IMG/VR virus record: IMGVR_UViG_3300034418_006598
Reading direction: 5' to 3' (one strand)
DNA from: an uncultured virus (IMG/VR IMGVR_UViG_3300034418_006598)
Lineage: Duplodnaviria; Heunggongvirae; Uroviricota; Caudoviricetes
DNA: 20,000 nt
Translations under genes and position numbers: made by a program
Shown here: positions 1 to 19,849 of the stretch, piece by piece
Layout: each line of letters begins with the position of its first letter
How positions within the stretch are numbered: position 1 is the stretch's first letter
The notes under the pieces: generated by a model
The model's database searches: none
What the model saw: only the letters and a program-made list of their open reading frames with translations
What the model was told of the DNA's origin: nothing

Positions 1-405
1 CGGGAAGTGTTAGATGATGGTTCTGAGGTGATGTTGGAGCCGGATCAGAACGCTGTTCGTACGGTGTTGGGTATTATGGATCGTCGTGCGAAGCTTTTGG
101 GTATGAATGTGGAGCGTGCTGTGGTTGAGTTGCAGATGGATGGGGGTGGTGGGGATACCATTGATGTTCGGAGTAGTTTGGCTGGTGCTGCTGGTGGTGA
201 GGTGTTGGAGACGGGGGAGGCTGCGAAGGCGGAGTCGTTGCAGTTGTTGGAGTTGATGGCTTCGTCTGGGGTTTTGGATGAGGGTGTTGTTGGGGATATT
301 TTGTCTAGTGTTGAGGAGCGTGGTGGTTTGGAGGAGGATAGGGTTGAGTTGGATGATTTGGATGTTGTTGATGCTGAGATTGTTGATGAAAGTGAGGATT
401 TGTGA
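1..405 (+). CDS. Partial (5' truncated) terminase small subunit-like / HTH phage protein with acidic tail
   Basis: Frame is open from base 1. AVRTVLGIMDRRAKLLG resembles the 'vl.imdRRAKLLGl' motif of actinophage small-terminase-like proteins. The stop overlaps the next ATG (TGATG). Confidence 0.5.
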   Translation, partial: REVLDDGSEVMLEPDQNAVRTVLGIMDRRAKLLGMNVERAVVELQMDGGGGDTIDVRSSLAGAAGGEVLETGEAAKAESLQLLELMASSGVLDEGVVGDILSSVEERGGLEEDRVELDDLDVVDAEIVDESEDL

Positions 406-967: not shown

Positions 968-1044
968 TGGTGGGGCAGGTGAGGCTTGAACTCACTTTCT
1001 CCGCCGTATAAGGACGGTGCATTTACCCGTTATGCTTCTGCCCC
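968..1044 (-). tRNA. tRNA-Ile (anticodon UAU), CCA encoded
   Basis: Reverse complement folds as GGGGCAG-AA-GCAT AACGGGTAA ATGC-A-CCGTC CTTATAC GGCGG-AGAAA-GTGAG TTCAAGC CTCAC-CTGCCCC-A-CCA; 77 nt; position 8 is A rather than U. Confidence 0.9.
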
Positions 1045-2893: not shown

Positions 2894-4465
2894 TTAGCTG
2901 GCGATGTGTTCTCGCCAACGCTCTAGGATGCGGGGCTGTGGCTTCTCGCCTGCCTGCAATCCTCGAAGGTAGGTGATGGCATCGTCCACGCTGTATTCCA
3001 TGTGGACGCTGTTGCGGTGTGCAACCTTGGCACATTCCATCTCGTCCATGATGCCGCCTCCGTAGCCTCTGTAGACCATGCCGTCGGTGACCCAGAGGAC
3101 TGGGGCCTTGATGGTCTGCTTGAGGCTCAGGGCGTACTCCAGGGCGGGCAGGTCGTTGCCGTTGCCGCCGGGGAAGCGGGGAAGCTCAGCGCAGATTTTG
3201 CCCTTGTCGGCCAGGAGCCAGAGGTTGTGCTTGGAGTCGGCGGCGAACGATGCCGAGTGGGCAAGAACGGTGCAGCCGGGAGCGGCGAGCATGATGTTCT
3301 TTACCTGATCTTTGCTGAGGCTCATCGAGCCGGACACGTCGATCAGAACGACGCCACCCTGCGACTTGACCTTGCGGTCGAAGATGCGCTTCTCGGGGTC
3401 GGTGAGGTAGCGGACCATCCGGCGAGGGTTGCGTCCGACCTGGGACGGTCCTCGCTTGTAACCGATGGCTCCCTGCACCGTGGTGGTGAGAGGCATCTTG
3501 CGGAGGCTGACGGGGATCCATGAGCCTGAGCCGTAGAGTCCGACGTTGCCTTCGAGGAGCCGCTTGGCTTTCTCCTGAATCTCCTTGCGGTCGATCGGCT
3601 GGTCTTGGTCTGCAAGCTCGGCTGCTTCGGCGTCGCCAGTTGTTCGCTTAAGGTTTTCGGGATCAAGTTCGCTTTCACCTTCGGTGGGTTCAGCGTCCTC
3701 GGTCTCGTCCTGCTGCGGCGGCTTGGGGGGCATCGAGGCGATGGACTCGATCATGAGTGCCATCTCGATGCTGTAGTTCATCCCTTCGATCCGGTCGGTT
3801 TGGACGTTGCGTCCGGTGACATGATCGTAGCTGAAGAACGGAGTGGTGCTGCCGTAGTACCCGAGGGTGCCTGCTTCGTCAGCGTACTTGAAGCTGCCGT
3901 ACTTGCCCTTCTTGATCTTCTTGATCTGGTTTTTCTGGTACTTGACAAGCTCCGATGCGATGGTGCGTGCCGAGTCGGCCCATGCCGGGTTCTCCTTGCG
4001 GATGCCGGAGATGAGCGGGGTGAGGCTGCCGGTGTTGATCGAAGCTGCGACTGCGCAGACGAGTGCGTTCCAGTCGCCCTGCTTTGCGATCATCTCACCT
4101 TCGTGCCGTTCGGAGCCGGTGATGAGGGCTTTCATCGGGAACCCAAGTTCCTGGGCGATAAAGTTTACCCTGGCTTCTTCGGCTGCACGGATGGCGTCTT
4201 CACCGACGGCCTCGTTGACATAGGGGGTAATGTCGGCGGGTGAGACCTTGACATGAACCTGCTCGTGACCACGGATGGCACGGGCAAGCTCGGAGTCGTC
4301 CAACGGGACTCGCATGATGCGTCCGGAGACCGTGATGAACGGTTCGCCTCGGACGGCTTTGGCGTTGCCAACGTCCCAACCACCGCTGTTGCGGAGATCC
4401 TGGCGTCGGAACACTTCAGGCATTGGCCTGTTCTTGTTCTGAATCTGTTCTTCGATGTTAGCCAT
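2894..4465 (-). CDS. Metallopeptidase-like (HExxH) plus von Willebrand factor A domain protein (CobT-like AAA partner)
   Basis: GHEQVH and EEARVN in the N-terminal part; acidic linker; MIDAS motif VLIDVSGS and WVTDG in the C-terminal part; AGAGAGGA RBS before ATG 4465. Confidence 0.8.
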   Translation of the reverse strand: MANIEEQIQNKNRPMPEVFRRQDLRNSGGWDVGNAKAVRGEPFITVSGRIMRVPLDDSELARAIRGHEQVHVKVSPADITPYVNEAVGEDAIRAAEEARVNFIAQELGFPMKALITGSERHEGEMIAKQGDWNALVCAVAASINTGSLTPLISGIRKENPAWADSARTIASELVKYQKNQIKKIKKGKYGSFKYADEAGTLGYYGSTTPFFSYDHVTGRNVQTDRIEGMNYSIEMALMIESIASMPPKPPQQDETEDAEPTEGESELDPENLKRTTGDAEAAELADQDQPIDRKEIQEKAKRLLEGNVGLYGSGSWIPVSLRKMPLTTTVQGAIGYKRGPSQVGRNPRRMVRYLTDPEKRIFDRKVKSQGGVVLIDVSGSMSLSKDQVKNIMLAAPGCTVLAHSASFAADSKHNLWLLADKGKICAELPRFPGGNGNDLPALEYALSLKQTIKAPVLWVTDGMVYRGYGGGIMDEMECAKVAHRNSVHMEYSVDDAITYLRGLQAGEKPQPRILERWREHIAS

Positions 4466-4502
4466 GGTATGTCCTCTCTGATGGCTAGGTGGTGTAATAA
4501 AG

Positions 4503-4551
4503 AGTGTAGCGGCCCGGAGTGGTATTCCAACCTCCGGGCCGCTACTTTTTT
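4503..4551 (-). promoter_or_regulatory. Hairpin-embedded promoter for the vWA gene; reads as an intrinsic terminator on the + strand
   Basis: On the - strand: A-tract, TTGGAA-N16-TACACT within a 14 bp stem GTAGCGGCCCGGAG/CTCCGGGCCGCTAC. On the + strand the stem is followed by TTTTTT. Confidence 0.65.
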
Positions 4552-4624
4552 GGAAAGGCGCCAACCACAACACCTTTCCATTGATGTGCCGGTCAGAACC
4601 CTAACTGACCTTTGGAGGCACGAT

Positions 4625-5353
4625 CTAGATGGTTGGTGTGCTGTCGATGGGCCGCATGGTGTCGATGGCGACTGCCTGCAAGAAGGCGTCGGCACGGTCA
4701 CCGAGGATAACCTTGGCTGCCTTTTCAGTGCCGAGGCGCTGGGACAGCTTGTTGAGCGACTGGAACAGTCGAAGCGACATGCGCTCCGATCCGGCGTCGG
4801 CCATCCGGTCGGCGTAGTCTCGCCATGCCATCGGCAGGGTTTCGAGAGCCAGCGGGTGCGGACGGTCGATGCGGATGCGGACCGGGAAGCGGTCGATGAG
4901 TGCCTGAGGCAGTTCTTCGATCTGCTCGACGTTGGTCGTCATGATGACTTGGTAGCCGTGGGCTGCGGTGTGCTTCTCACCGGTCACGGGATGTTCCCAG
5001 ATGGACGAGCCGTCGGAGTCGGTGATGTTGAGCAGGGTAGCGAACACATCGCCACCGGCCTTGTCGATCTCGTCTACGACGAGTCGGCCACCACTGGTCA
5101 TGGCCTTGACGGCGGCACCTTCGATCCATTCGAAGCCTCCGTCTGCGGACGGCAGGAAGCCGCCGGTAACGTCCATGTTGGTCATGTCGTCGGTGCAGGT
5201 GATGCGGTGCGACTCTTGGGCGTGCATCTTGTTGCAGTGTAGAGCGGTGAACGTCTTGCCGGTCCCGGGGGGTCCGTACAGGATGACTCGATCTACGCCT
5301 GCGTGGATGACCTCTTCAAAGAGCGTCCAGCAGTTGTCATTGTTGTCGTGCAT
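4625..5353 (-). CDS. MoxR/CbbQ/NirQ-type (CobS-like) AAA+ ATPase
   Basis: Walker A GPPGTGKT, Walker B LVVDEIDKA, sensor-1 MTTN, ALIDRF arginine finger; AGAGGAGG RBS before ATG 5353. Confidence 0.9.
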   Translation of the reverse strand: MHDNNDNCWTLFEEVIHAGVDRVILYGPPGTGKTFTALHCNKMHAQESHRITCTDDMTNMDVTGGFLPSADGGFEWIEGAAVKAMTSGGRLVVDEIDKAGGDVFATLLNITDSDGSSIWEHPVTGEKHTAAHGYQVIMTTNVEQIEELPQALIDRFPVRIRIDRPHPLALETLPMAWRDYADRMADAGSERMSLRLFQSLNKLSQRLGTEKAAKVILGDRADAFLQAVAIDTMRPIDSTPTI

Positions 5354-5393
5354 TGTGGTTGCGCCTCCTCTGGCACTTGTTGGTTCCCCCTCT

Positions 5394-5442
5394 AAGGTAG
5401 CGGGGGCTGGGTGGTTTACCAACCTCGTTGTGAAAGTTTTTC
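5394..5442 (-). promoter_or_regulatory. Promoter for the AAA ATPase (same family as the early promoters)
   Basis: AAAAACTTT...GAGG-TTGGTA-N17-TACCTT on the - strand. Confidence 0.65.
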
Positions 5443-5561
5443 TTGTGGCTGGTTGGCTGGGGACACCATTGGCAGTGGTAGACATGTGTCTGCTGCGGGG
5501 GGTGGCTTCAGCGCTGAGTTCGATGGTAGGGGTTGGGGGCCGGTTCGACAACCTGCAAGTG

Positions 5562-5577
5562 TGTGACATATGTCACA
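5562..5577. promoter_or_regulatory. CRP/GlxR-type box TGTGA-N6-TCACA
   Basis: Perfect palindrome TGTGACATATGTCACA in the divergent intergenic region. Confidence 0.55.
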
Positions 5578-6836: not shown

Positions 6837-7190
6837 ATGGGAGCAACATTTGTGTTCGCTACAGCGGACATCACACAACCCAAAGAATACTGGCAGAACT
6901 ATCTCGGAGAGATGGACGACGGTCAGATGCAATCGTTCATCGACTACAGCGATGAGATGTTCGACTGGGAAGATGCCTTAGATCCTTTCTCCGCTCAGGA
7001 CGTTGCGGAGCGTGTCAGCGAAGCCATTGAGGTGGCCTACGATGACTTCAGGCGAGATGTGGGCTACTGGCAAGAGGGCGACACCCTGTACGCTCTTTCT
7101 GGTGGTCTTAGCTGGGGCGATGAACCCACCGACGCCATGCGTGATCTGATGATCTTCAACTACCTACAAGTTTGGGCGAAAGGAGCCTAA
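6837..7190 (+). CDS. Hypothetical phage protein (SGGLSWGDEPT motif)
   Basis: AAGGAG RBS; tight packing. Confidence 0.75.
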   Translation: MGATFVFATADITQPKEYWQNYLGEMDDGQMQSFIDYSDEMFDWEDALDPFSAQDVAERVSEAIEVAYDDFRRDVGYWQEGDTLYALSGGLSWGDEPTDAMRDLMIFNYLQVWAKGA

Positions 7191-7191
7191 C

Positions 7192-7491
7192 GTGGATTTC
7201 ATTGTTCATCCCGGTACGGGAACCATCATGGCAAGCAGGGAGTGCGTTTGGCTTCCTGCCCATGCTCTAGAGAAAGTCGATCCCGACGATCTTGAGGAGT
7301 TGCAAGACGCTATGGACAAGCACGCTGTCCCGACGGACGGACCGATCCATATCGTCTCTGTCGGCAACGCACACGACGGCATCACCCTGTTCGGTCCGTT
7401 CATCACGGCAGAAGACGCTGGCGACTGGGCCGCACAGAACTGCGTTGACGACTGGCAGGTGGTAACTCCCCAGACAGGAATCTTCTGGTAG
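7192..7491 (+). CDS. Hypothetical protein
   Basis: AAGGAG RBS, GTG start. Its stop TAG forms the start of a polar motif copy. Confidence 0.7.
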   Translation: MDFIVHPGTGTIMASRECVWLPAHALEKVDPDDLEELQDAMDKHAVPTDGPIHIVSVGNAHDGITLFGPFITAEDAGDWAAQNCVDDWQVVTPQTGIFW

Positions 7492-7619
7492 GGACACCAT
7501 AGGTCAGGTTAGAAAGCACCTCTCCTCCACCGGAGGCAGGCAGGGCGGCTCGACCCCTTCGGGGGCGGGCACGCTCTCGCCGGTAGGCCGGACCCCCGTC
7601 GGGGCCTCCCGGCAGGCCG

Positions 7620-9390: not shown

Positions 9391-9792
9391 GTGGAACAGC
9401 TCCACATCCCAACCACCAACATCACCGTCAACGCCGACAAGGTGGCCGAACGGCTCGCCATCACGGTCGTGGAGGCTCGTACTGCTCTGGCTGACGCCAA
9501 GGCAGCGGTCGAAGCAGCCGAGCGTGCGTTCAAGGCCACCGGCACCGAGTCCGTCCTCCTGCAGGACGGCACCAAGGTGGCGCTGGTGAAGCAGCAGCGT
9601 CGTTCGCTCGACACGGTGACCCTGAAGGGTCTGCTCGCCAAGGGCAGGTTCCAGCGGGTCAGCCGCCGAGTGGCCGACATGGCGCTGGTGGACGGCGAGA
9701 TTGCGGCTGGCCGCATGACCGCCGACGAGGTGGCCGAGGCCATCACCGTGAAGGATGTCGTCGCCCTCAAGGTGACCCAGCCGAAGCGGTGA
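9391..9792 (+). CDS. Hypothetical protein with short coiled coil
   Basis: GAAGGAG RBS, GTG start, strong codon bias. Confidence 0.8.
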   Translation: MEQLHIPTTNITVNADKVAERLAITVVEARTALADAKAAVEAAERAFKATGTESVLLQDGTKVALVKQQRRSLDTVTLKGLLAKGRFQRVSRRVADMALVDGEIAAGRMTADEVAEAITVKDVVALKVTQPKR

Positions 9793-9798
9793 GAATCT

Positions 9799-9838
9799 CA
9801 GGGGAGAGGTTGGGAAACCAGCCTCTCCCCTGTACCCT
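9799..9838 (+). promoter_or_regulatory. Hairpin-embedded promoter
   Basis: CAGGGGAGAGGTTGG-GAAA-CCAGCCTCTCCCCTG; TTGGGA-N17-TACCCT. Confidence 0.7.
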
Positions 9839-10791: not shown

Positions 10792-10827
10792 TAGCGGGTT
10801 GGTGTTCCCTCACCGGCCCGCTAACAT
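10792..10827 (+). promoter_or_regulatory. Hairpin-embedded promoter
   Basis: TTGGTG-N17-TAACAT; stem TAGCGGGTTGGTG/CACCGGCCCGCTA. Confidence 0.65.
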
Positions 10828-10860
10828 GGGGGTTACTGCAAGCAACACACAGGAGGAACT

Positions 10861-11121
10861 GTGAAAAACGCTAAACGAATCGAACGTGACCTCTGGCATG
10901 GCGGCGGTAGCTCCGGCTCTGTTTCCATCCCCAAGGAAGTCTCTGACAGCATCAACACCCTGACCGACTTCGTAGCTCAGATGATCCCCGACGGGGAAGA
11001 GCTTATGATCGACCTCGGGATGAAGATCGCAGAGATGCTAGACAACTATGATCCCACGCCCTACGCCATCGCATTCGACGGTCGGCCCATGAGCCGGGAC
11101 GAGTTCTCAACATCGGCATAG
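10861..11121 (+). CDS. Hypothetical protein
   Basis: AGGAGG RBS, GTG start. Confidence 0.75.
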   Translation: MKNAKRIERDLWHGGGSSGSVSIPKEVSDSINTLTDFVAQMIPDGEELMIDLGMKIAEMLDNYDPTPYAIAFDGRPMSRDEFSTSA

Positions 11122-11175
11122 ATAAAGCCGTAGAGAGCAGGGCGGGCGTGCGGCCCTGGTAATACAACAGTACGG

Positions 11176-11206
11176 TATCCTCCTGAGCATGAGGATAAAC
11201 TGCTCA
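11176..11206 (+). ncRNA. H-type RNA pseudoknot
   Basis: Stem 1 is TATCCTC/GAGGATA; loop TGAGCA pairs with downstream TGCTCA after an AAC linker. Confidence 0.55.
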
Positions 11207-11210
11207 CCAT

Positions 11211-11322
11211 GCTCCACCAAAGGCTGGGAACCTACTAGCGTGGACAGGCACCGGTTCGGCGGTTGTCCCCGTGAGACTGGATGTCGCTAGTAGAGGGCAG
11301 AGTTCGACTCTCTGCTGGGGCA
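11211..11322 (+). ncRNA. tRNA-like structured RNA with branched insertion replacing the anticodon loop
   Basis: Acceptor-like GCTCCA/TGGGGC, D-like AGG-CTGGGAA-CCT, stem ACTAGCG/CGCTAGT, T-arm GCAGAG-TTCGACT-CTCTGC. Confidence 0.6.
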
Positions 11323-11405
11323 CTTACCTCCCCCTATCCCCCGGCCCTGCGTATGCGGGGTCCGGGGGGTTCGGGAGTGAGCCAGTAGGCTACGGGGTTT
11401 GCCCG

Positions 11406-11586
11406 TAGGGACACCATAGGCTCTGTTAGACACACAGAGTAGGAGCGGGAGACGCTGACCCGCCCCCGCTGGCGGGCACCCGCCGAGGCGAACATTTGTT
11501 CGTTCCACTATGCGGAACTGTTCCACAATACGGAACACAAAAAATCTTGGCTGAGAGGTTGGAAACCGTGTTTCAGCCGGTACTAT
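11406..11586 (+). repeat. Composite intergenic module, copy 1
   Basis: Polar motif 11406, CGAACATTTGTTCG 11489-11502, palindromes 11502-11518 and 11520-11536, promoter TTGGAA-N16-TACTAT. Confidence 0.85.
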
Positions 11587-11626
11587 CGAATGGCGAGGGA
11601 ACGTCCCTCGGAAGGAGGCACCGACC

Positions 11627-11959
11627 ATGCCCAAGATGGTCATCAACACGTGCTGGGGAGGCTTCAGCCTTAGCGATGCGGCGCACCGCCGCCTCGGCTC
11701 GGTCTACGTCGAAGCGGACGACACCGAGTACGGCTTCGGCTACTGGAACACTAACCCCTGGAGTCAGGGCATGGAGTCCCACGAGCTGGAGTACCGCAGC
11801 TTGCCCGCTCTGGTCGAAGTGGTCGAACTGCTGTGCGACGAGGCCAGCGGCAGCTACTCCCGACTCAGGGTCGTGGATGTGCCCGACGACGCCGAGGTTT
11901 ACATCTCGGAGCACGACGGGCGGGAAACGGTCCGAGAGGTCCACCGTAGCTGGGGCTAA
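11627..11959 (+). CDS. Conserved phage hypothetical protein (VIN.C.GGF.LS family)
   Basis: AAGGAGG RBS; VINTCWGGFSLS...PALVEVVE...LRVVDVPDD...ISEHDGRE motifs. Confidence 0.85.
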   Translation: MPKMVINTCWGGFSLSDAAHRRLGSVYVEADDTEYGFGYWNTNPWSQGMESHELEYRSLPALVEVVELLCDEASGSYSRLRVVDVPDDAEVYISEHDGRETVREVHRSWG

Positions 11960-13654: not shown

Positions 13655-13743
13655 GTATCTTCATCTGGGCCATCGGTATCGGGCTGTACGTCCTCTTCGA
13701 GACTCACCGCACCCGGTGAGTCTCGGAGGGGGCGACCCCTGCC

Positions 13744-13927
13744 GTGGGGCACCATAGGTAGTGATAGACACACAACCTTTGAGCGGGAGATGCTGGCCCG
13801 CCTCCGGCGGCGCCCCTTCGGTCGAGGCGAACATTTGTTCGTTCCACTATGTGGAACAGTTCCGTATTGTGGGACGCAAAGAAATCTTACCTAGCACGTT
13901 GGTAAACCGTGCTCGATGCCCTACCCT
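13744..13927 (+). repeat. Composite intergenic module, copy 2
   Basis: Polar motif variant 13744, CGAACATTTGTTCG 13828-13841, palindromes 13841-13857 and 13859-13875, promoter TTGGTA-N17-TACCCT. Confidence 0.85.
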
Positions 13928-15019: not shown

Positions 15020-15046
15020 GCGCCGACGACCGGCCCCCGGTACCCG

Positions 15047-15238
15047 TAGGGATACCATAGGCTCTGATAGACAAGCGCGTATGGGGGCGGGAGGGTCTCA
15101 CCCTCGGGCTGCTCGCCCGCCTCGCCGCTGTCGTCCGCCTGTTTGTCGCCTGTTCCGTATGGTGGAACTGTTCCACAATGCGGAACGTAAAAAAATCTCA
15201 GCTAGCACGTTGTGAAAGGGTGTGCAGGCCGGTACCGT
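15047..15238 (+). repeat. Composite intergenic module, copy 3 (no LexA-like box)
   Basis: Polar motif 15047, palindromes 15152-15168 and 15170-15186, A-tract, TTGTGA-N17-TACCGT. Confidence 0.8.
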
Positions 15239-17015: not shown

Positions 17016-17060
17016 GATCACCTCCCCCCTGGGGGTGGGGGCTACGGCCCTCGCCCCCGC

Positions 17061-17252
17061 TGGGGACACCATCGGCAGGGATAGACACACAACCTTTGAG
17101 CGGGAGATGCTGACCCGCCTCCGGCGGCGCCCGCCTCCGCCCGCCTCCGTCCGCTTCCGCTCGCCGTTCCACATGGTGGACCCGTTCCACGATACGGAAC
17201 GCTGAAATATCTCACCTGACAGGGTGGAAAACGGTGCAGCAGCCGGTACTCT
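17061..17252 (+). repeat. Composite intergenic module, copy 4 (no LexA-like box)
   Basis: Polar motif 17061, about 50 bp nearly identical to copy 2, palindromes 17166-17182 and 17184-17200, GTGGAA-N17-TACTCT. Confidence 0.85.
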
Positions 17253-17768: not shown

Positions 17769-17852
17769 ATCCTCCCCCCTCGCCCCGGTCCGGTTCACTC
17801 CGGGCCGGGGCGCCGGGGCCGGGGCCGACTTGCATTCTGGCCCGACCTGTGC

Positions 17853-18066
17853 TAGGGACACCATAGGTAGGGATAGACAAGCGCGTGCGTGCCGGGAGGT
17901 GCCCACCCGGGCGCAGCCCGCCTGCCGCCGAGCGTCCGCCGAGCGTCCGCCGGGGCGAACAGGCGTTCGTTCCGCATGGTGGAACAGTTCCGCATCGTGG
18001 AACCGAAACATTGGTCGAAATTTCTTTGGTGAAATGTGCCGCAACCCGTCCGAATGGGTGTACACT
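17853..18066 (+). repeat. Composite intergenic module, copy 5
   Basis: Polar motif 17853, CGAACAGGCGTTCG 17956-17969, palindromes 17969-17985 and 17987-18003, -10 TACACT 18061. Confidence 0.8.
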
Positions 18067-18529: not shown

Positions 18530-18577
18530 CCCCACACCTCGCCCCACACCTCGCCCCACACCTCGCCCCACACCTCG
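18530..18577. repeat. Tandem repeat, 4 x CCCCACACCTCG
   Basis: Four exact 12 bp units. Confidence 0.95.
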
Positions 18578-18633
18578 GGGCACACCCGACCCAAAGCAAT
18601 ACGCCGAGGAAACTCGGCGGGAGGAAAGACACA

Positions 18634-18912: not shown

Positions 18913-18988
18913 GACCTCCCCCAAACCCCGCCCCGGCATCCGTCGGGGTGGGGTGACGGGTGGACTTGCGTCCCGGCCCGAAGTGTGG

Positions 18989-19205
18989 TAGGGACACCAT
19001 CGGCTCTGTTAGGGAGCGCAGCCGCCGCCGGGAGGTCCCGACCCCTCCCGCTGCCCTCCGCCTACCCCCCGCCGGAGGCGAACACTCGTTCGTGCGAACG
19101 CCTGTTCGTTCCACAATGCGGAATCGTTCCACAATGCGGAACGGCGAAATCTCTCAGATTTCTGGCACGACATCCACCGCAACCCGTGCGAACGGTGATA
19201 GGGTA
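18989..19205 (+). repeat. Composite intergenic module, copy 6 (two LexA-like boxes)
   Basis: Polar motif 18989, CGAACACTCGTTCG 19079-19092, CGAACGCCTGTTCG 19095-19108, palindromes 19108-19124 and 19126-19142. Confidence 0.8.
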
Positions 19206-19697: not shown

Positions 19698-19791
19698 CCC
19701 ACACCCCGCCCACACCTCGCCCACACCCCGCACCCCACACCCCGCCCACACCTCGCCCACACCTCGCCCACACCCCGCACCCCACACCCCG
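19698..19791. repeat. Tandem repeat, 8 x CCCACACCYCG
   Basis: 11 bp units, two preceded by a CAC insertion. Confidence 0.9.
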
Positions 19792-19849
19792 GACCGCACC
19801 CCACCGATCCGGGGCCGGAAAGATTCCTGAGAAATATCGGCGGATGACG

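Follow-up and report, generated by a model that had tools for sequence, protein, structure and literature searches.

The mascRNA/menRNA family (RF01684) is a eukaryotic, non-decoding mimic of the acceptor stem and T-arm of a tRNA, located at the 3′ end of a longer transcript and processed by RNase P and RNase Z. In phages, 3′ fragments of tRNAs and tmRNAs are common knowledge, and those at attachment sites consist of a T-arm with an acceptor strand, encode no CCA and occupy intergenic positions that vary.

The layout most relevant here is that of phage tmRNAs without a coding sequence (CDS), phage-encoded RNAs of about 80–110 nt that have no anticodon and that combine an acceptor helix, a stemless GG loop, a helix with a short interior in place of the anticodon arm, a 3–4-nt linker and a canonical T-arm. 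The mycobacteriophage DS6A is reported as a ‘TLD only’ example, and a similar molecule consisting of the tRNA-like domain alone is a strong inhibitor of tmRNA regardless of its capacity for charging, perhaps through titration of SmpB, according to the available text of the two reports (PMC4131195, PMC11915505). Non-decoding tRNA mimics with a T-arm and a D-like loop also occur in phages among the YrlA Y RNAs, which the available text of PMC4201824 describes as circularly permuted, with their ends at the anticodon side and a loop-closed acceptor, and as encoded beside a Ro60 gene. The tRNA genes of Lak megaphages carry extra sequence in the anticodon region, short ‘enigmatic introns’ left unexplained in the available text of PMC6784885; their presence varies among close relatives, and tRNAscan gives a type, an anticodon and an excision point.

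Here we analyse a 20,000-nt stretch of viral DNA (the window) in which a preliminary description had pointed to a tRNA-like RNA with an insertion in place of the anticodon loop. The element would represent an insertion of 113 nt into the untranslated spacer that follows a small early gene, in a freshwater phage of approximately 122 kb. It shares with each of the systems above the features just listed for CDS-less tmRNAs, the acceptor and T-arm mimicry of mascRNA/menRNA, the T-arm and D-like loop of YrlA, the extra anticodon-region sequence and uneven presence of the Lak genes and the variable intergenic position of attachment-site fragments, and it differs from each of them in ways that we set out below.

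A tRNA-like upper half

The pairings named in the preliminary description (a T-arm, an acceptor-like stem, a GG loop, a 7–9-bp helix and sub-hairpins) and the missing CCA can all be found in the sequence (Table 1). Every conserved position of the T-arm is matched, with equivalents of G53, T54, T55, C56, G57, A58 and C61 within 11297–11315, and the T stem and acceptor together can be drawn as a 6 + 6-bp, 12-bp stack, the length of the ‘ruler’ or upper half of a tRNA, with an acceptor half that is thermodynamically fragile and ambiguous in its partner; T11210 and A11322 offer a possible seventh acceptor pair. The junctions between the 9-bp helix and the adjoining T-arm are likewise of tRNA-like length. 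In the best register, C occupies both the U8 and the A14 positions, a 3-bp mini-stem is possible but there is no proper D stem, and pair 3–70 is U3·G70 rather than G3·U70. Two sub-hairpins can be drawn inside the interior, GGACA/TGTCC (11242–11246 with 11264–11268) and CCG/TGG (11269–11271 with 11278–11280). When a 126-nt stretch (11205–11330) is folded in isolation, the MFE and centroid structures both take the cloverleaf-like shape as drawn. With its stemless D loop, P2-like helix, short linker and T-arm, this architecture matches the tRNA-like domain of tmRNA; the layout is that of such a domain and not that of a tRNA.

Table 1 Features of the tRNA-shaped element and of its surroundings (positions in the window)
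Feature	Position	Strand	Basis
Whole tRNA-shaped element, including the optional T11210–A11322 pair and one further base	11210..11323	+	Sequence; MFE of 11205–11330; absent from G001:C128
Acceptor-like 5′ strand, GCTCCA	11211..11216	+	Partner is 11316–11321, with one U·G pair
D-like loop, stemless, 15 nt, with GGG inside; without U8 and A14 equivalents	11217..11231	+	Sequence; MFE gives a 3-bp mini-stem at most
5′ arm of perfect 9-bp helix in the anticodon-stem position	11232..11240	+	One of 20 perfect inverted repeats of at least 9 bp in the window
44-nt interior replacing the anticodon loop; two competing folds, GGACA/TGTCC or a long imperfect rod	11241..11284	+	Sequence, folding
3′ arm of the 9-bp helix	11285..11293	+	Sequence, inverted-repeat list
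Canonical T-arm: 6-bp stem GCAGAG/CTCTGC (11297–11302 / 11310–11315), loop TTCGACT (11303–11309)	11297..11315	+	Sequence
Acceptor-like 3′ strand TGGGGC with a discriminator-position A; the next bases are CTT instead of CCA	11316..11322	+	Sequence
Upstream 86-aa ORF; likely source of any read-through transcript	10861..11121	+	RNA-library contigs cover it
GC-rich hairpin after the 86-aa ORF, 6 bp, 9-nt loop, no T-run; inside the stretch identical in the relative (11080–11158)	11138..11158	+	
Small hairpin CCTC/GAGG; duplicated in the replacement cassette of the relative	11179..11194	+	
Strong GC-rich hairpin after the element; kept in the relative; likely end of the transcription unit	11338..11368	+	
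Downstream 110-aa ORF (phrog_16527); a repeated regulatory cassette of its own lies ahead of it (11402–11586)	11627..11959	+	

Setting and transcription of the locus

The window has a GC content of 52–67% and encodes small ORFs mostly without a family, together with a CobS-like AAA_5 ATPase, a DUF932 protein (the gene of which lies 2.5 kb upstream of the element on the same strand) and a real tRNA-Ile(UAU) at 968–1044 on the minus strand, which scores 61.2 bits in Rfam and has its CCA encoded. A Pfam search of 31 window ORFs found neither an integrase family nor a TROVE (Ro60) protein. Gene starts of the Shine–Dalgarno type suggest that the host is probably a bacterium. An identical copy of the studied region is carried by a metagenome contig of 121,926 bp, the single match of a 23-nt pattern in the JGI metagenomes, and all sampled words of the stretch are present in 14 freshwater DNA runs.

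The ORF-free gap of about 500 nt that had been noted around the element measures 505 nt (11122–11626) and holds no plus-strand ORF of at least 50 aa. Shorter ORFs of 33–45 aa cross the element, none of them with a Shine–Dalgarno-like lead as judged by eye, and a small protein gene was rejected, as was a promoter of its own for the element, a promoter scan of 10800–11700 having called none. Because no promoter-like site was called nearby, any transcript of the element would be read-through from the upstream gene. Downstream, the hairpin at 11338–11368 precedes one of eight repeated regulatory cassettes, and analogous hairpins stand before the others. TAAACT at 11196–11201, picked out by eye alone, is at most a candidate promoter word.

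Contigs assembled from four RNA libraries bear on transcription, with the provisos that such contigs may include DNA and that breaks at a polymorphic site would give the same ends. Those of three runs end at 11170–11173, 12–15 nt past the hairpin at 11138–11158 and before the element, at most a weak hint that the abundant transcript stops short of it. One contig (X16) covers 11068–11275, running from the upstream ORF into the element, possibly as DNA carry-over, and 11276–11448 is covered by no RNA-library contig, although missing cover proves nothing.

Could the arrangement arise by chance?

One account, distinctly possible if somewhat short of even, requires no tRNA ancestry: within a hairpin-rich and fast-evolving 3′ UTR, a T-loop-like loop would have arisen by accident and a G-rich tail would find C-rich partners, RNA function being limited to the hairpins at transcript ends. 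Several counts favour it. The canonical T-arm motif, present twice in the window (in the element and in the real tRNA-Ile), occurs at least once in 25 of 300 dinucleotide-shuffled windows; the window holds 20 perfect inverted repeats of 9 bp or longer; and the G-rich 3′ acceptor strand has four alternative upstream partners, starting at 11153, 11211, 11248 and 11265.

The rarity of the full arrangement speaks against chance. In a joint test, the T-arm and its 3′ strand were taken as given, and a helix of at least 9 bp ending 2–8 nt before the T-arm was required together with a contiguous 6-bp acceptor partner 8–25 nt further upstream. Given the T-arm, shuffling the real upstream sequence 20,000 times produced this full arrangement in 4 cases, and the same combination of helix and acceptor was found at 20 of 15,884 anchor positions in natural sequence. 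The joint chance of an element-like arrangement is about 2e-5 to 1e-4 per window, rare for a single window, yet a handful of such cases are expected across the approximately 250,000 windows scanned, as an accidental origin would predict. A further point against accident is that this phage group carries tRNA-like genes, namely the tRNA-Ile here and a CDS-less tmRNA at the locus L034 described below.

Folding is more favourable to chance. The MFE of the element gives a z score of −1.16 against shuffles, 23 of 200 of which are equally stable, and the element is therefore not better than shuffled sequence, whereas the full 299-nt spacer shows strong structure (z −3.29) with an MFE fold that drops the cloverleaf. 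The acceptor forms with a probability of about 0.7 solely when the element is exactly excised, falling to 0 with roughly 15–25 nt of extra flank per side; the 9-bp helix has a probability of about 1.0 in the context of 11180–11345, and in contexts of 300 nt or more it is displaced by other pairings, as is the T stem. The control tRNA-Ile, folded with flanks of 90–100 nt, kept all four of its helices, most pairs reaching 0.9 or more and two anticodon-stem pairs about 0.55.

Distribution among relatives

The nearest available genome, G001, has a collinear 20-kb contig (C128) with aligned blocks that are 69–97% identical to the window (84–97% for the long collinear ones) and with many indels. The flanks of the element are kept on this contig, 11080–11158 being identical and the sequence after 11324 about 94% identical, and 11209–11323 is replaced by 89 unrelated nucleotides, which duplicate the small CCTC/GAGG hairpin. 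Neither a tRNA nor a T-arm motif occurs on this contig, and comparison of relatives marks the locus as a hot spot for indels. Among the more distant, DUF932-anchored relatives in IMG/VR, the element was absent from 7 of 7, and in a survey of the genus (28 genomes) and the order (401 genomes) the flanking DNA recurs solely in G001.

Wider searches were equally empty. At the DNA level, no cultured phage in a collection of 50,697 records showed similarity; a 28-nt pattern of the element and a pattern of the downstream hairpin each had 0 matches in IMG/VR. Searching the 41 genomes around G001 with a covariance model built on the element (R3) returned 0 matches, and the same model gave nothing better than E 0.76 in the loci of relatives, bar four loci preselected for sharing the T-arm. 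Searches anchored on the neighbouring genes yielded one distant locus for the 110-aa protein, which is without the element, and no homologue locus for the 86-aa protein, the contigs of representative genomes likewise giving none.

A few partial likenesses were set aside. Three IMG/VR loci (L021–L023) have the same 19-nt T-arm, and none of them is called as a tRNA. The piece in L021 that has 11 of 12 bases in common with 11210–11221 (shuffle p 0.03) was rejected and is treated as chance because it comes from a region that P1-like phages of enterobacteria conserve in the absence of the T-arm. An exact 10-mer common to L022 and 11217–11226 (p 0.0125 before correction for four comparisons) was not counted as homology, and neither was a follow-up pattern scan in which, of 80 loci among the matches listed (at least 116 stretches), two have the T stem, about the chance rate. 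A BLAST search against phages returned a lone 24-nt match to a Mesorhizobium phage tRNA-Leu (E 4), a likeness generic to T loops and acceptor ends. That no homologue was found besides the identical copy, and that relatives are without the element, again favours chance. The preliminary description had itself named a lack of covarying homologues and of a discrete transcript as grounds for abandoning its proposal, and as far as these methods reach we found neither such homologues nor such a transcript.

An integration or recombination scar seems highly unlikely. The 3′ 26–40 nt (T-arm plus acceptor strand) would then have been captured from the 3′ end of a tRNA, host or phage, in the manner of an attP or attR core, and the upstream complementarity would be incidental. 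Consistent with such a capture, tRNA-like sequence is confined to the 3′ part, the 5′ part being without a tRNA-like D arm, the position is prone to indels, and 3′ fragments of tRNA and tmRNA in phages are mentioned in the available text of PMC9004378. In the window, however, unlike at attachment sites, the upstream complementarity completes a fold, and no identical host tRNA was found: a search of 185,579 species, each represented by one genome, returned 0 exact matches to the 24-nt string of T-arm plus acceptor, and BLAST of the 41 genomes around G001 gave a best E of 0.106, four fetched matches to the T-arm region not being tRNA genes. The lack of an integrase family among the 31 window ORFs scanned also argues against capture.

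Comparison with CDS-less tmRNAs

Seven IMG/VR loci encode a DUF932 protein 68–73% identical to that of the window, and ARAGORN makes calls in none of them. At L034, a canonical T-arm lies 2.35 kb downstream of the DUF932 gene on the same strand, as part of an 82-nt element. The Rfam tmRNA model aligns to this element with its two ends, at a score of 46.9 bits (E 4e-17; gathering score 47). In the element, 304 middle positions of the model give way to 13 nt, and G3·U70 and the A discriminator are present; judged by its sequence, it is a CDS-less tmRNA reduced to the tRNA-like domain alone.

Searching IMG/VR with a degenerate pattern turned up at least 120 stretches of this kind, with 80 loci among the matches listed, and ARAGORN was silent on 67 of these 80. 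A model of the L034 element at E ≤ 1e-5 had 62 matches among the 80 listed loci (at least 62 in IMG/VR). In the resulting family alignment 97.8% of cells are paired, and 9 of 17 pairs show compensatory changes, among them all five of the P2-like helix; 49 of 50 distinct sequences have G3·U70, where the pattern fixed G3 but not U70, and the remaining one has a gap. A firmer side result is that CDS-less tmRNAs, which ARAGORN misses, look far commoner in viral contigs than DS6A, the single example named in the available text of the reports cited above, would suggest.

The element in the window shares the layout of this family but is not a member of it. A covariance model built from the 62 viral family members (R2) gives the element 14.1 bits (E 0.66), aligns it in a different register and ranks it under the ordinary tRNA-Ile (23.3 bits). 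The 5′ GGGG, G3·U70, the UCGAC/GGAC motifs and the conserved inner hairpin of CDS-less phage tmRNAs are all missing, and the interior comprises 44 nt in a 9-bp helix, compared with about 23 nt in one of 5–8 bp. That the element is nonetheless a diverged member of the family acting as an SmpB sponge appears very improbable: the common layout, and a position on the same strand at a similar distance after the DUF932 gene (2.5 kb, compared with 2.35 kb in L034), would fit such a descent, whereas the lack of an Rfam tmRNA match at E ≤ 10, the R2 result, the U3·G70 pair where nearly the whole family has G3·U70 and a gene content between DUF932 and the element that is not common to the window and L034 all count against it.

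Decoding capacity

At gathering scores, Rfam found nothing in the whole window but the tRNA-Ile. When the threshold was relaxed to E ≤ 10 for 601 nt and then for 141 nt around the element, no match to tRNA (RF00005), tmRNA (RF00023), permuted tmRNA or YrlA (RF02553) appeared, and the sole plus-strand match over the element was to mascRNA/menRNA, with 18.3 bits where the gathering score is 42.5 (E 0.55 for 601 nt, 0.13 for 141 nt). This match takes another acceptor register (11265–11271) and is at chance level. A YrlA RNA was rejected, given that the element ends at its acceptor and is not permuted, has no RF02553 match and has no TROVE protein encoded among the 31 ORFs. A standard or permuted tmRNA was likewise rejected, with no match in Rfam or ARAGORN, the tmRNA mode of which returned nothing on the element. 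The earlier statement that the element is neither a normal tRNA nor a tmRNA stands on these results and on the R2 score.

ARAGORN does make calls on the element, but they are artefacts. Its default call (11233–11321) has a 2-base anticodon and a mismatched acceptor, and its intron mode returns a tRNA-Asp at 11153–11323 that has C at position 37 and needs both an intron of 77 nt and a variable arm of 23 nt. We rejected this tRNA-Asp, the 5′ acceptor strand of which belongs to the conserved hairpin at 11138–11158 and the D stem of which is unpaired in the sequence of G001:C128. The T-arm (11297–11315) is the anchor of every partial call that ARAGORN and Rfam make on the element. Of the checks first proposed, Rfam turned up no tRNA or tmRNA at E ≤ 10 and ARAGORN in intron mode gave an intron that is artefactual.

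To assess excision directly, all internal segments starting at 11238–11255 and ending at 11262–11291 were removed in silico and each of the 540 variants was run through ARAGORN. None was callable as a tRNA at the default threshold, and a relaxed threshold gave 176 calls spread over at least 20 anticodon labels. A reading of the sequence found no 7-nt stretch that could serve as an anticodon loop by having U at 33 together with a purine at 37, inspection by eye found no 3-4-3 bulge-helix-bulge motif at the junctions, and the Rfam scans, in which no intron family appeared, gave no group I intron core for an insert of merely 44 nt. Given the detector and excision results, the body of the element is weakly tRNA-like and holds no intron whose removal would mend it. 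The intron-containing tRNA that had been suggested, a decoding gene interrupted by 44 nt removed after transcription, is scarcely credible, as the precedent of short introns in Lak megaphage tRNA genes (PMC6784885, in its available text) and the ARAGORN call are outweighed by the 0 of 540 excisions that restore a tRNA (compared with the defined types, anticodons and excision points of the Lak genes), the scatter of relaxed calls, the lack of any possible U33/purine-37 loop, a length far under that of group I introns with no intron family matched, and a model that borrows a different 5′ half from a conserved hairpin and needs a 23-nt variable arm. The suggested decoy for anticodon nucleases would lack its substrate, as the element has no anticodon loop.

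Discussion

The element has the shape of a tRNA upper half, is unique apart from its identical copy, is absent from relatives and fails in every family test. We tentatively favour, with nearly even confidence, the reading that it is an orphan, strain-specific and non-decoding tRNA-shaped module, derived from a tRNA and either a relic or a mimic. It is favoured by the complete T-arm, by the 12-bp stack with its discriminator A, by a helix arrangement that is rare among shuffles, by the shape of the isolated fold, by the recurrence of the architecture in the functional-looking CDS-less tmRNA of the relative L034 and its family and, unless it is DNA carry-over, by contig X16. A decaying relic derived from a tRNA is a somewhat unlikely form of this reading; an active, non-decoding ‘top-half’ mimic is unlikely and would be a little less probable still. 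The tRNA-like non-coding RNA first proposed keeps its tRNA-like shape in the upper half, but the claim of a functional RNA does not follow, as the only copy found is identical, the closest relative is without it and we saw no discrete transcript. As a working RNA the element has the backing of no program, relative or transcript, and it is a weak curiosity, not yet a discovery.

Its transcription, its processing and any function are matters that we infer. If the module were active, it would be co-transcribed with the 86-aa gene as far as the strong hairpin at 11338–11368. RNase P would cleave 5′ of G11211, the 3′ end would be trimmed to A11322 and CCA would be added, and, by analogy with tmRNAs reduced to the tRNA-like domain, the freed RNA of approximately 112 nt would present a tRNA elbow to tRNA-binding factors. 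In its most specific form, which we consider quite improbable, the module would be a working, lineage-specific mimic of the tRNA elbow, built to the plan of the tmRNA tRNA-like domain without alanine identity and released by RNase P from the 3′ UTR of an early transcript, that may titrate a host factor able to bind tRNA or tmRNA, for example SmpB, a modification enzyme or a defence protein that senses tRNAs. Were this so, it would mark a second, independent origin of such decoys in phages.

The locus also carries a caution, in that a perfect T-arm with complementary strands in a GC-rich, hairpin-rich spacer is insufficient for calling an RNA gene. If the module is real, it would join a growing number of phage RNAs in which the upper half of a tRNA is kept and decoding is lost. 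It would also indicate that the alanine-type tmRNA lineage is not the only source of such mimics, and would implicate host factors recognizing the tRNA elbow as points at which phages interfere with the host.

Sequence turnover and a possible transcript end near the element

At 10864-11173 of the window, contigs of three RNA libraries from three studies cover an 86-amino-acid ORF. All of them end at 11170-11173, 12-15 nt past a hairpin at 11138-58, and this common stop reflects either a genuine 3' end or a break in assembly where the variable region begins. The collinear relative contig L025 (G001:C128) has unrelated sequence in place of the tRNA-shaped element of the window, and this replacement cassette (9741-9829, minus strand) carries a duplicated CCTC/GAGG hairpin with the TAA(A/T)CTGCTC motif that follows it. 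Two other small hairpins have been added in the same cassette, at a site that is a hot spot for indels.

A composite intergenic cassette occurs in eight copies in the window. Each comprises, in order, a GGGACACCATAGG...TAGACA box, two operator-like GTTCC-N7-GGAAC inverted repeats, and a promoter-like TTGGnA-N16/17-TACnnT pair. Three further copies stand in reversed context (149, 936 and 1439), and the cassette is also repeated in the collinear relative. A weak match to the Tymovirus tRNA-like structure within one copy (11418-11505, minus strand; 18.7 bits, E 0.17) is probably due to chance.

Tandem units of 11-14 nt each, of the form CCCACACC(T/C)CG, were also observed at 18531-18589 and 19698-19802, amounting to eight register copies divided between two arrays that are separated by about 1.1 kb. 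At 2894-5569 (minus strand), a CobS-like ATPase of the AAA_5 family, with the phrog label 'porphyrin biosynthesis', adjoins a 559-amino-acid protein of unknown PHROG, an arrangement similar to the CobS/CobT pair, which is common among large aquatic phages.

Positions of repeated and tRNA-related features
Feature	Position	Strand	Remark
Cassette copies, window	5454-5484, 7485-7515, 11402-11432, 13740-13770, 15043-15073, 17057-17087, 17849-17879, 18985-19015, and neighbours		
tRNA-Ile(UAU), window	968-1044	-	CCA encoded
T-arm locus, L022	about 285-354	-	19-nt T-arm exact

Other tRNA-like loci and a CDS-less tmRNA family

Two IMG/VR loci, L022 and L023, carry a T-arm identical over all 19 nt to that of the window element, and neither is called as tRNA. 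The former folds into an acceptor/T minihelix of 12 bp, behind which come A and CCA (z -3.74), and it has a 10-mer in common with window 11217-26; the latter (278-327) forms a small tRNA-like structure, about 47 nt long, with a 5-bp acceptor.

In L034, a relative of the window phage, an 82-nt CDS-less tmRNA consisting of the tRNA-like domain only (7012-7093, plus strand) matches Rfam tmRNA at 46.9 bits (E 4e-17). The tRNA-Ile(UAU) of the window, in which position 8 is A and not U, is identical to it over the first 8 bases and scores 22.6-23.3 bits with the two models of the CDS-less tmRNA family. DS6A is the phage named as an example of such RNAs in PMC4131195 and PMC11915505.

The L034 element is a member of a large viral family. 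A degenerate pattern retrieved at least 120 stretches from IMG/VR, and among the 80 loci listed (L044-L123), 62 match a model of the L034 element at E<=1e-5 and 67 receive no call from ARAGORN. Covariation is strong, and G3.U70 is retained in 49 of 50 distinct family sequences. The CDS-less tmRNA family is apparently broad and appears to lie in a blind spot of ARAGORN.
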